NCBI GenBank assembly: GCA_963771175.1
Contig: CAVYSY010000010.1
Coordinates: 129,393-193,392, forward strand
DNA length: 64,000 nucleotides
Direction: 5' to 3'
Source of the DNA: an uncultured delta proteobacterium
GTDB lineage: Bacteria > Myxococcota > Myxococcia > Myxococcales > Myxococcaceae
Shown here in pieces: positions 32,101 to 34,627 of this stretch. Every line of letters starts with the position of its first letter. Positions within the stretch are counted from its first letter, which is position 1. A program made the translations under genes and the position numbers. The notes beneath the pieces were generated by a model. The model searched no databases and was not told the origin of the DNA. It worked only from the letters and a program-made list of their open reading frames with translations.

Positions 32101-34133
32101 ACGGGGTGAAGACGACCTACACCTATGAGCCCGACACCCGGAGACTGTCCTCGCTCACCACCCGGACACCTCGCGGGCGCACCCTGCAGGCGCTCTCCTA
32201 CCAGTACGATCGCATGGGGAACCTGCTCGGGATGACCAACGCGCTCGGCCTGCCGGTGGGACGCCGTTCGGGCTCGGTCTCCTATTCGTTCAGCTACGAC
32301 GCGCTCTACCGGCTCACGTCTGCCCAGGGCGTGGCACTGGCGCGACCGGGGCTCATCGACCGGTTCGAATCCACCTTCGCCTACTCGGATATCCACAACC
32401 TCGAGCGCAAGGTGCAGGTGCACGAGCTGCTCACCAGCCGCTCACCCCAGGGTGGCCCGGCACGTCCGGACCATAGCAACCACGATGACGCATACGTCTA
32501 CGGCGGGAGCGGGCCGCACCAGGCCACGCGCATCGGCGACATGCTCCTCACCTACGACCTCAACGGCAACACACTCGTCGAGTGCCGCACGGTCAACGGG
32601 TCGGGCTGCGCGGACACCGGAGATTCGACGCCCTCGCCCCAGACACACAACCACTACCGGCGCTACGTGTGGACGGAGGACAACACGCTACGGGCTGTGG
32701 TGGACGGAGGGGGCGCCAATGCCACGCGCTTCTTCTATGACGCGGACGGCGAGCGCGTGGTGAAGCTGGGCCGGGGCGGAACCAGCCTCAGCATCGACCA
32801 GTTCTTCTCTGTGAAGGGCAAGCGCCACGGCACCAAACACATCTTCGCCGGGCCCACGCGTTTGGCCTCCAAGCTGCTGCCGGTACCGGATGGTGACATC
32901 GGCTTCGCCGAGCGCCCAGGCGACACCTCCGGGACGGTGCTCACGAGCGGCACCCTCGCCACCGACAATGACAATGGCTGCGAGCCGAGCAACTATCAGC
33001 CACAGAAGTGCCCGGTGGTGGTGGATCCGCCCCCGGGAGGCACGGGAGATGAGCCCTCGGTACGGCCGGCCACATATTACTACCACCCGGATCACGTGGG
33101 CTCGACGAGCTGGGTGACGGACCAGCAGGGCCGCGTCCACGAGCATGTGGAGTACTTCCCGTACGGCGAGGTGTGGCGAGACCAGCGCCACGACGACGAT
33201 GGGGCGCCGGTACGCGCCCCCAACTACCTCTTCTCCGGCAAGGAGTTCGACGAGGAGACGGGGCTCGGCTACTTCGGAGCGCGCTATTACGATCCACGCA
33301 AGGCGCGGTGGGTGTCGGCTGATCCATTCCGCGAGCAGTGGGGCAAGGAACCAGTTCCGCCGCTCCTGTCGGCATATGGCTACTCGTACCACTCGCCACT
33401 CGTCCTGAAGGATCCGGACGGCAGATTGCCCAACGTGGTGGTTGGCGCGGCGGCGGGCGCTGTGATCGGCGGTGCCGTCTACTCCGTGACCAAGGCCTTC
33501 ACGGGAGGCTTCACGTGGAGGGGCTTCGGAGCGGCGGTTGCTGGTGGCACGGTGAGCGGAGCCATCGCGGGTGCCACATTCGGAACAAGCCTCGTCGCAC
33601 AGGCTGCCGTGGGAAGCGCCGCCGGTATGGCCGGAGGCATAACCAGTCGGGCCATCGAGACGGGCAGCGCCAAGGAAGCGTTCAATCCCCGCGCGGTAGT
33701 CACCGATGGAGCCCTGGGAGGTGCATTTGGCGCTGCAGGTGGAGCCATCCGGAACGCGGTGGCCGCACGGACAGCCGCAAGCACAACTCTCGCGAATACA
33801 GCCGCAAGGACCACAGCACGTGCAGGGAGCGAGGTCACAGATGATGCAATCCGCGCCGCAATGGCGGATGCGCCATTGAAGACACATCAACAGGCCGTAT
33901 CCGTTCCGGCGATTCGTCGCTACGTTGATAGGCTCGTTGCTGGAGAGAGCCCTCCACCAATAAAGGTCGACAACGGCATCATCGTCGATGGCAATCACAG
34001 ATACATCGCCGGACGCCTATTTGGCTCAGAAACACCCCAAACACCTGGAGTCCTGCCTAGCTTCAAAGCTTCACAACCACCACTCAGCTGGCGTGATATA
34101 TTTCTCGACCCTACGGACTGGGGAAACAAATGA
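23120..34133 (+). CDS. Giant Rhs/YD-repeat polymorphic toxin: SpvB(TcB-N)-FG-GAP-TcdB-mid-Rhs core-ParB/Srx-like tip; split by about 4 indels (near 29732, 29765, 29830, 31346)
   Basis: GGAGG RBS; lipobox ALGC; SpvB-like GARGAYSPELRLMYDSSGGNGWLGVGWDL; several D(L/I/M)NGDG repeats; YDRDEREFFGFATV; YD repeats; Rhs core YYYHPDHVGS...YFPYGE...FSGKEFDEETGLGYFGARYYDP...PLVLKDPDG. The split ORFs read through in adjacent frames. Confidence 0.88.
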
Positions 34134-34627
34134 TTCGCATTACGTGCGAAACCGGCGAGATCGTTGAACTGGCTATCGACCACCTGGAGCGGGCAGATCT
34201 GCGCGGAATCGAGCTTCATCGCGCACTCTTAGGGCAGGCGAATCTCCGTGGAGCAAACCTCCGCGAGGCCAACCTGCGTGCAGCGTATCTTGATGCCGCT
34301 GATCTATCTGGTGCAAACCTGGAAGGGTGTAAACTGATGGTGGCCAGCCTCCGACAGGCTCGACTCGTTGGAAGCCTGCTGCATGGAGCGTGGCTCAATG
34401 GTGCAAATCTCGAGGCTGCCGATCTTCGAGGCGCAGACTGCTCGGACGCCGATCTGGGCGGAGCCAATCTAGCATGCGCCGACCTAAGAGGCGCCAACAT
34501 GCGGTCCAAGCGATTGGAATTATCAAACCTTCACAACGCCCGAGCGGACACAAGCACCCTATGGCCAGACAATTTCGCTCCCGCGAATGCCGGAGTTGTC
34601 GTAGAGCCACCAACCACTATCCTCTAG
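34130..34627 (+). CDS. Pentapeptide-repeat protein, putative cognate immunity protein
   Basis: ADLRG/ANLRG/ANLRE/ADLSG/ANLEG repeats with a WPDNF cap; ATGA overlap with the toxin stop. Confidence 0.85.
   Translation: MIRITCETGEIVELAIDHLERADLRGIELHRALLGQANLRGANLREANLRAAYLDAADLSGANLEGCKLMVASLRQARLVGSLLHGAWLNGANLEAADLRGADCSDADLGGANLACADLRGANMRSKRLELSNLHNARADTSTLWPDNFAPANAGVVVEPPTTIL

Follow-up and report, generated by a model that had tools for sequence, protein, structure and literature searches.

What kind of toxin sits at the tip of a myxobacterial Rhs protein, and why should the gene that follows it encode little else than pentapeptide repeats? The question is raised by a locus in a 64,000-nucleotide stretch of DNA (hereafter "the window") from an uncultured delta proteobacterium of the Myxococcaceae (GenBank assembly GCA_963771175.1, contig CAVYSY010000010.1, positions 129,393 to 193,392 of the forward strand). 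Here a very large Rhs gene ends in a variable C-terminal domain, the tip, and the next gene encodes a 165-residue pentapeptide-repeat protein, its partner. An initial annotation, made by a model from the letters of the sequence, had read the tip as a toxin with the fold of ParB and sulfiredoxin (Srx), and the partner as its candidate immunity protein. It is on balance probable that the two genes form a polymorphic-toxin cassette, in which an adenosine triphosphate (ATP)-dependent ParB/Srx-fold tip would be neutralized by direct binding of the pentapeptide-repeat immunity protein, a mechanism proposed by analogy with the toxin ToxB. The elements on which this reading turns are the following:

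33423 to 33830, plus strand: Gly/Ala-rich hydrophobic linker, glycine-zipper-like and variable among family members (sequence, with 21 relatives compared).
33831 to 34133, plus strand: C-terminal toxin domain of about 100 residues, predicted to have a ParB/Srx-like fold and belonging to an unnamed family (homologue search, AlphaFold, Foldseek).
33990 to 34001, plus strand: the residues G-N-H-R, the presumed phosphate-binding P-motif, equivalent to Box II (conservation in alignment A1, likeness to ToxB).
34130 to 34627, plus strand: pentapeptide-repeat protein of 165 residues, the presumed cognate immunity protein (Pfam, gene neighborhood, alignment A2).

The translation agrees with what had been described at the end of the Rhs gene. 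The residues DPDG, encoded at 33411, are indeed followed by a Gly/Ala-rich hydrophobic stretch, and the C-terminal 100 or so residues do bear the announced DGxHR signature: the segment PPIKVDNGIIVDGNHRYIAG is present there, with DGNHRY inside it. The linker (residues ~686–800, about 115 residues) has a single family match, to the glycine zipper family PF05433, which is below threshold (E 0.014). Judging from the relatives compared, the conserved unit is the last ~100 residues only, from about 33831 onward, and the stretch between DPDG and the domain varies. A homologue search of 1.84 billion proteins, clustered at 50% identity, found 436 cluster representatives matching the last 110 residues at E ≤ 1e-3, 293 of them at E ≤ 1e-10. 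Among the matches listed, the matching segment lies at or near the C-terminal end, in proteins whose length ranges from 97 to 2826 residues. The carriers are diverse, since the Pfam families found in 35 long members comprise RHS repeats, SpvB/TcdB, DUF637/Fil_haemagg (CdiA), PT-HINT, PT-TG, DUF6443 and Ig-like domains. On the tip itself no Pfam family was found in any of these 35, and the window tip (last 110 residues) has no sequence match in Pfam, NCBIfam or the PDB. The public names of the 88 relatives listed by one additional search, and of the best 120 listed by another, are limited to "RHS repeat-associated," "DUF637," "filamentous hemagglutinin" and "hypothetical." Hosts identifiable by name include Pseudomonas aeruginosa, Achromobacter, Salmonella, Providencia, Proteus, Serratia, Paenibacillus, Sorangium and Chryseobacterium.

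An alignment of 58 members of the toxin domain (A1) has four invariant positions, Q30, G48, G64 and H66. Strong conservation extends to T13, S34, P36, R40, Y41, P52, I54, N65, R67, Y68, A70, G75, D103, D106 and W107, and the domain is mildly basic (median isoelectric point, pI, 8.2). Compared with PDB sequences, the A1 profile found nothing meaningful, and in particular no chain of the ToxB type; its matches to protein disulfide isomerases (E 0.076 and worse), confined to the N-terminal half, were taken as chance.

The partner gene begins before the toxin gene has ended: its ATG at 34130 overlaps the toxin stop codon TGA (34131–34133) in the sequence ATGA. This overlap, and the A(D/N)Lxx repeats of the product, had both been noticed at the outset, and the second is confirmed by a match to the Pfam family Pentapeptide (PF00805) at E 3.4e-33, in five stretches and with 113.2 bits for a cut-off of 20.2. 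The partner belongs to a subfamily of about 160 residues whose members share an N-terminal cap and a C-terminal T-x-W-P motif (A2). In this alignment H30 and R50 are invariant, and R31, W145 and P146 occur in at least 90% of the sequences. Since H30/R31 and R50 are 20 residues apart, which corresponds to one coil, we would expect them on the same face of adjacent coils. The family is acidic, with a median pI of 4.8 and a median net charge of −6.5.

Does the partner accompany the toxin elsewhere? One genome per species was scanned for the motif region, and the best 80 of 119 confirmed relatives were kept as the locus set. In 60 of these 80 loci the open reading frame (ORF) directly 3′ of the toxin matches the window partner (phmmer E 1e-10 to 8e-43), and a profile search of six-frame translations recovered seven further partners missed by the ORF rule, bringing the total to 67. 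Counting the loci with enough downstream DNA, the partner is present in 67 out of 76, so that the check set beforehand, namely whether such tips have a pentapeptide gene after them in other genomes too, came out in favor of the pairing. Going by record titles, the 67 loci with a partner are spread over at least nine phyla (Bacillota, Pseudomonadota, Myxococcota, Bacteroidota, Verrucomicrobiota, Planctomycetota, Chloroflexota, Actinomycetota and Fusobacteriota). A four-nucleotide overlap of start codon and toxin stop was seen in 27 of 53 loci, and a P. aeruginosa record has the pair annotated as "hypothetical protein" followed by "pentapeptide repeat-containing protein." With 436 tip representatives, and a pentapeptide gene downstream in 67 of 80 loci, the features seen in the window sequence are beyond chance, and the toxin domain and the pentapeptide protein are almost certainly a toxin–immunity pair, one as yet without a name.

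The two genes also seem to share a history. Toxin and partner identities are correlated (Spearman 0.37, a value reached by 0 of 999 permutations), and the two major toxin clades, when mapped on the partner tree, require five changes, vs. a mean of 18 after shuffling. The toxin tree mixes phyla, with 12 label changes for a minimum of five. Taken together, the correlation of identities, the clustering of clades and the mixing of phyla indicate that the two genes move together as a cassette. Base composition in the window points the same way:

33750 to 35100, no strand assigned: stretch of low guanine-plus-cytosine (GC) content, 0.54–0.60, between flanks of 0.65–0.73 (composition profile).

Covered by this stretch are the toxin domain, its partner gene and some 450 nucleotides after it, and the drop gives the pair the look of an acquired cassette. 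The DNA that follows the immunity gene is apparently non-coding, and the next gene (34895–36586) encodes a protein with an InlB B-repeat-like domain. Some myxobacterial genomes hold two separate cassettes: L034 and L037 lie on one contig, about 16 kb apart, and Sorangium cellulosum So0157-2 carries both L039 and L045.

What, then, is the toxin domain? The core shared by ParB and sulfiredoxin is a β-α-β-β-α-β arrangement in which a GxxR phosphate-binding motif opens the second helix. Predicted from the single sequence, the tip gave a useless AlphaFold model (predicted local distance difference test, pLDDT, 39.5), and the one used here was therefore computed with A1, reaching a pLDDT of 95.2 and a predicted template modeling score (pTM) of 0.88. 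In order, its elements are strand 32–34, helix 35–46, strand 54–57, strand 60–63, helix 65–74 and strand 80–82. The AlphaFold model thus contains both the β-α-β-β-α-β core and the phosphate motif, with G64–R67 at the junction of strand 60–63 and helix 65–74. Searched with Foldseek, the PDB gave 2hwj as its best match, a weak one (E 0.23, probability 0.60, TM 0.44). The named fold matches are to Spo0J, sulfiredoxin (7lj1, E 0.77), the ParB proteins of Myxococcus and Caulobacter, Noc, KorB and the N-domain of pNOB8 ParB. Among the predicted viral structures of BFVD the best match, also weak, is a "ParB/Sulfiredoxin domain-containing protein" (E 0.018, probability 0.98, TM 0.50), and 24 of the 27 named matches, among 50 listed, are ParB/Srx proteins. 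Neighbors of the tip in the ESM Atlas include a cluster of "ParB/Sulfiredoxin domain-containing protein" at 0.92 and another, with 28% ParB_N members, at 0.90. The fold first guessed from the signature is thus also that of the top structural matches, weak as these are (best E 0.018). On the strength of fold matches that are consistent but individually weak, together with the motif, the modeled tip likely has a ParB/Srx fold. A link to the ParB family PF02195 was also sought through borderline homologues; the best 120 of 377 all proved to be close family members. Sulfiredoxin itself is, like the modeled tip, a compact single-domain ParB/Srx fold, and it is ATP-dependent; it matches the tip weakly in fold and not at all in sequence. 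Where the tip has GNHR, sulfiredoxin has a structurally equivalent G-x-H-R motif, and its catalytic Cys corresponds to Asn in the window toxin.

Within the G-N-H-R motif, G64 and H66 are found in 58/58 sequences of A1, N65 in 53/58 and R67 in 56/58. The same four residues are central to ToxB, a ParB-fold domain that ends some CdiA proteins and that binds and slowly hydrolyzes ATP (Kaljevic et al., preprint 10.64898/2026.05.05.722872). ToxB binds the phosphates of ATP via G105-N106-H107-R108, and its R108A variant is non-toxic (10.64898/2026.05.05.722872). Both ToxB and the window tip are small C-terminal domains of ParB fold (predicted in the window tip), devoid of helix-turn-helix or dimerization domains, both carry this P-motif in the C-terminal domain of a polymorphic toxin, and in both systems immunity is given by a small downstream gene (presumed so in the window). 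Even the spacing between a conserved tyrosine and the motif is similar, with 23 residues from Y41 to G64 in the window tip and 24 from Y81 to G105 in ToxB, as counted from residue numbers only. Since the same four residues occupy an equivalent structural place, an ATP-dependent toxin is proposed by analogy, and not by membership in the ToxB family. The tip would accordingly depend on a nucleoside triphosphate, which is probably ATP. As described, the immunity proteins differ. The iToxB protein binds ToxB directly and occludes its ATP site, being a dimer that contributes R, H, H, W and Q residues to that site (10.64898/2026.05.05.722872), whereas the window partner is a pentapeptide-repeat protein; the word "pentapeptide" has 0 occurrences in the preprint.

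How would such a cassette operate? The last ~100 residues of the Rhs protein would constitute a small enzyme domain of ParB/sulfiredoxin fold, to be released behind DPDG and delivered into a neighboring cell. Once there, the domain would bind a nucleoside triphosphate, most likely ATP, by means of G-N-H-R, and would be toxic through that activity, as ToxB is. The next gene, translationally coupled, would supply the cognate immunity protein in the form of a pentapeptide-repeat β-helix of about 160 residues. We infer that this protein would bind the toxin directly, that the binding surface would be the His/Arg patch conserved toward the N-terminal end of its helix, and that the nucleotide or substrate site of the toxin would be blocked as a result.

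Several observations weigh against this reading. Regarding the fold, no Foldseek match reaches E ≤ 0.001 in either the PDB or BFVD, and at E ≤ 10 none of the ParB-superfamily sequence models matches the window tip. Within the 58 sequences of A1, ParB_N matches one (E 0.16) and ddrB-ParB one (E 0.14). Among the matches listed, PF02195 was found on none of the 88 relatives of the one search, nor on any of the best 120 of the other. ToxB was found by way of PF02195 and is reported as rare (52 of 68,709 species; 10.64898/2026.05.05.722872), whereas the window family is large and invisible to PF02195; the two are therefore regarded as different families, set apart by description rather than by comparison of sequences. 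Regarding the pairing, 13 of the 80 loci have no partner. Four of these (L017, L046, L051 and L067) offer at most 134 nucleotides after the toxin, and two more (L071 and L073) have truncated toxin domains. The others, L003, L062, L021, L031, L032, L053 and L078, are assessable, and they simply lack the pentapeptide gene. In L003, a metagenome-assembled genome of Spirochaetota, its position is occupied (5296–6048) by a leucine-rich-repeat protein (LRR_8, E 1.7e-19), which may be an alternative repeat-protein immunity. In L062 the gene next after the toxin is vgrG. Pfam recognized nothing directly downstream in L021, L031, L032, L053 or L078, with a HAD_SAK_2 protein further on in L053, and the seven loci showed no cross-matches that would reveal a common alternative immunity gene. 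L021, L031, L032 and L078 are alphaproteobacterial (Sinorhizobium, Mesorhizobium, an uncultured alphaproteobacterium and Azospirillum).

Regarding delivery, the carrier is not one intact reading frame. It is made up of three pieces:

23120 to 29770, plus strand: N-terminal piece, with a lipoprotein-like signal, SpvB, FG-GAP and the start of TcdB-mid (translation, Pfam).
29828 to 31408, plus strand: middle piece, with the remainder of TcdB-mid, DUF6443 and the first RHS repeat (Pfam).
31368 to 33422, plus strand: Rhs repeat shell and RHS-associated core, with DPDG at its end, 33411–33422 (Pfam, TIGR03696).

The first piece has SpvB at E 7.2e-26 and TcdB_toxin_midN at E 6.8e-8 (Pfam); reading its N-terminus as a lipoprotein signal is our own interpretation of the sequence. 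It is closed by an in-frame TGA at 29768–29770, and the second piece continues in the same frame. The second interruption is a frameshift, located between 31288 and 31476 by alignment to P0147 and P0131, two full-length relatives with the same tip that are collinear with all three pieces. Beyond it, the ORF 31368–34133 (plus strand, 921 residues) is the third piece of what is one very large gene. It contains RHS repeats (Pfam RHS_repeat, E 3.6e-22) and the RHS-associated core TIGR03696 at residues 596–685 (E 7.5e-17), of which DPDG, residues 682–685, is the end. Otherwise the hallmarks of an Rhs polymorphic toxin are present, namely the repeats, a core ending in DPxG, a variable tip and a downstream gene. 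The split carrier is either a pseudogene or the product of sequencing errors, and if the sequence is accurate its two interruptions mean that delivery may not work here. The tip and the pentapeptide gene are both intact despite the split.

The initial annotation went further, to a toxin acting on DNA or a topoisomerase and a partner serving as decoy or target shield; this part of it found no support here. Among pentapeptide-repeat proteins, MfpA and Qnr mimic B-form DNA. The tip could be a DNA-targeting enzyme, either a DNase or a DNA-modifying one, and the pentapeptide protein a DNA-mimicking decoy occupying its DNA-binding surface. The charges would suit such an arrangement, with an acidic immunity family (median pI 4.8) facing a mildly basic toxin domain (median pI 8.2), but the difference in charge is small, and many immunity proteins are acidic. 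A nuclease activity has been argued to be possible for ParB-domain toxins (Zhang et al., 2012; PMC3482391); in the tip, however, no motif of a nuclease was identified, and ToxB, which hydrolyzes ATP, reportedly shows neither DNA binding nor DNA damage nor SOS induction (10.64898/2026.05.05.722872). A further point in favor comes from the Rhs toxins of the GH-E His-Me-finger nuclease type (PMC5714182, Group 14), which have an adjacent YjbI-like pentapeptide gene and, as here, no other annotated immunity gene, a situation that would fit a general DNA-mimic immunity. The GH-E fold (HNH) is unrelated to that of the window tip, and in the available text the authors do not propose the pentapeptide protein as immunity (PMC5714182). 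Given these neighbors, pentapeptide immunity may nonetheless be more general than one toxin family. All considered, a decoy of this kind is unlikely, while deserving to be kept in mind. Somewhat harder to credit is the broader proposal that a dedicated pentapeptide subfamily is the standard immunity of widespread GNHR ParB/Srx-fold toxins and acts as a nucleic-acid mimic. If such mimicry were true, the GNHR toxins, and by extension ToxB, would use ATP to act either on DNA itself or on an enzyme that handles it, for instance a topoisomerase, and where pentapeptide genes neighbor other DNA-directed toxins (the GH-E nucleases, for example), their products would be immunity proteins of the same kind, so far unrecognized.

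The partner might instead never touch the toxin, and shield its cellular target, for example DNA gyrase or a different DNA-binding enzyme, as do Qnr, MfpA, McbG and AlbG. The window partner resembles these four in being an acidic pentapeptide β-helix of similar size, and among PDB chains it shows weak similarity to MfpA (E 1.6e-8) and Qnr (E 2.3e-8). It is distinguished from them by its own N-terminal cap and its His/Arg patch, and it adjoins a delivered toxin, whereas they are resistance genes or stand beside antibiotic clusters. Its scores are far below the NCBIfam cut-offs for Qnr (34.9 vs. 240) and MfpA (39.5 vs. 360), as they are for all Qnr subfamilies, and those nearest to it among solved structures are repeat proteins, either cyanobacterial or designed (E 1e-28 to 1e-21). 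If it shielded a host enzyme, one would expect it to go with the host, but the partner travels with the toxin over at least nine phyla and the two trees track each other. Direct binding is the usual mode of action among the immunity proteins of polymorphic toxins, iToxB included. In favor of a shield, cells intoxicated by ToxB undergo nucleoid compaction, without DNA damage, and topoisomerases are among the systems that the authors consider possibly affected (10.64898/2026.05.05.722872). Target shielding is thus a decidedly doubtful alternative. That the pentapeptide gene would be a secretion accessory or chaperone, as pentapeptide proteins are reported to be in some type VI secretion system clusters, is very improbable, since it stands after the tip whatever the carrier (Rhs, CdiA, PT-HINT, short orphan tips), in Gram-positive hosts as well, with no other candidate immunity gene in between, and so has the position and behavior of an immunity gene.

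The preferred reading, a ParB/Srx-fold toxin bound by its pentapeptide partner, can be set beside two other known systems. That ParB/Srx-fold tips occur among polymorphic toxins, as had been stated at the outset, is correct: Tox-ParB and Tox-ParBL1 have the fold predicted for the window tip and, like its family, are carried by Rhs and filamentous hemagglutinin proteins and span many phyla (Zhang et al., 2012; PMC3482391). The immunities assigned to them are Imm20, Imm27 and Imm-SuFu for Tox-ParB, and Imm-SUKH and Imm44 for Tox-ParBL1 (PMC3482391), in contrast to the window, where the partner matches pentapeptide-repeat families only, so that a pairing with Imm20, Imm27 or Imm-SuFu is not seen. 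Neither the first 300,000 of the 357,715 characters of that article nor one of its supplements contains the terms "pentapeptide," "GNHR" or "NHR." The second system, Tse6/Tsi6a of Stenotrophomonas rhizophila, involves an Rhs C-terminal domain "of unknown function" (Taillefer et al., 10.64898/2026.07.13.738213). Like the window partner, Tsi6a belongs with the pentapeptide repeats, as it resembles the pentapeptide-repeat antitoxin of a Mycobacterium chelonae toxin, and the carriers of Tse6 orthologues (PAAR, Rhs and HINT, as well as TPS and Ig-like) cover the same range as those of the window family (10.64898/2026.07.13.738213). Tse6 is presented there as rare (37 strains), tied to saline niches and a "nuclease," without a detected motif and, in the available text, without a ParB/Srx link (10.64898/2026.07.13.738213). 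Compared by description only, Tse6/Tsi6a may be a member of the window family whose fold went unrecognized. In the literature consulted, no paper was found to state that a family of GNHR toxins with ParB/Srx fold is paired with an immunity family of its own made of pentapeptide repeats.

The rest of the window provides an unremarkable setting. The neighbors are ordinary chromosomal genes, including those for LepA, a signal peptidase, an MnmA-type tRNA methyltransferase and a poly(A) polymerase/CCA-type nucleotidyltransferase. A tRNA-Arg(CCT) gene lies upstream of the Rhs locus at 20699–20773, and two adjacent tRNA-Val(CAC) genes are found on the minus strand at 51927–51999 and 52025–52097. A few kb downstream of the pair, a thioesterase (37350–38471, plus strand) and a 4′-phosphopantetheinyl transferase (38468–39295, minus strand) hint at a secondary-metabolite locus nearby, unrelated to the toxin pair. 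Within the window the tip and the pentapeptide gene each occur once. PADLOC returned no match, which leaves a reading as anti-phage defense unsupported, and a promoter and terminator scan of 33300–35200 revealed nothing exceeding the shuffled background.

What does this locus add? The class of ParB-fold toxins and its logic are known; what is new is the class of the immunity protein, together with how broad the family is and that it has gone unannotated. This toxin domain is common on Rhs and CdiA proteins, yet it lies outside Pfam and NCBIfam. The ParB/Srx fold, together with the GNHR link, suggests that ATP-dependent ParB-fold toxins are far more widespread than the 52 species of ToxB. Most pentapeptide-repeat proteins are without a known function, and the members of about 160 residues that carry the His/Arg patch now gain a testable role in immunity. 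Finally, the nature of the immunity protein may itself hint at the target of such toxins.

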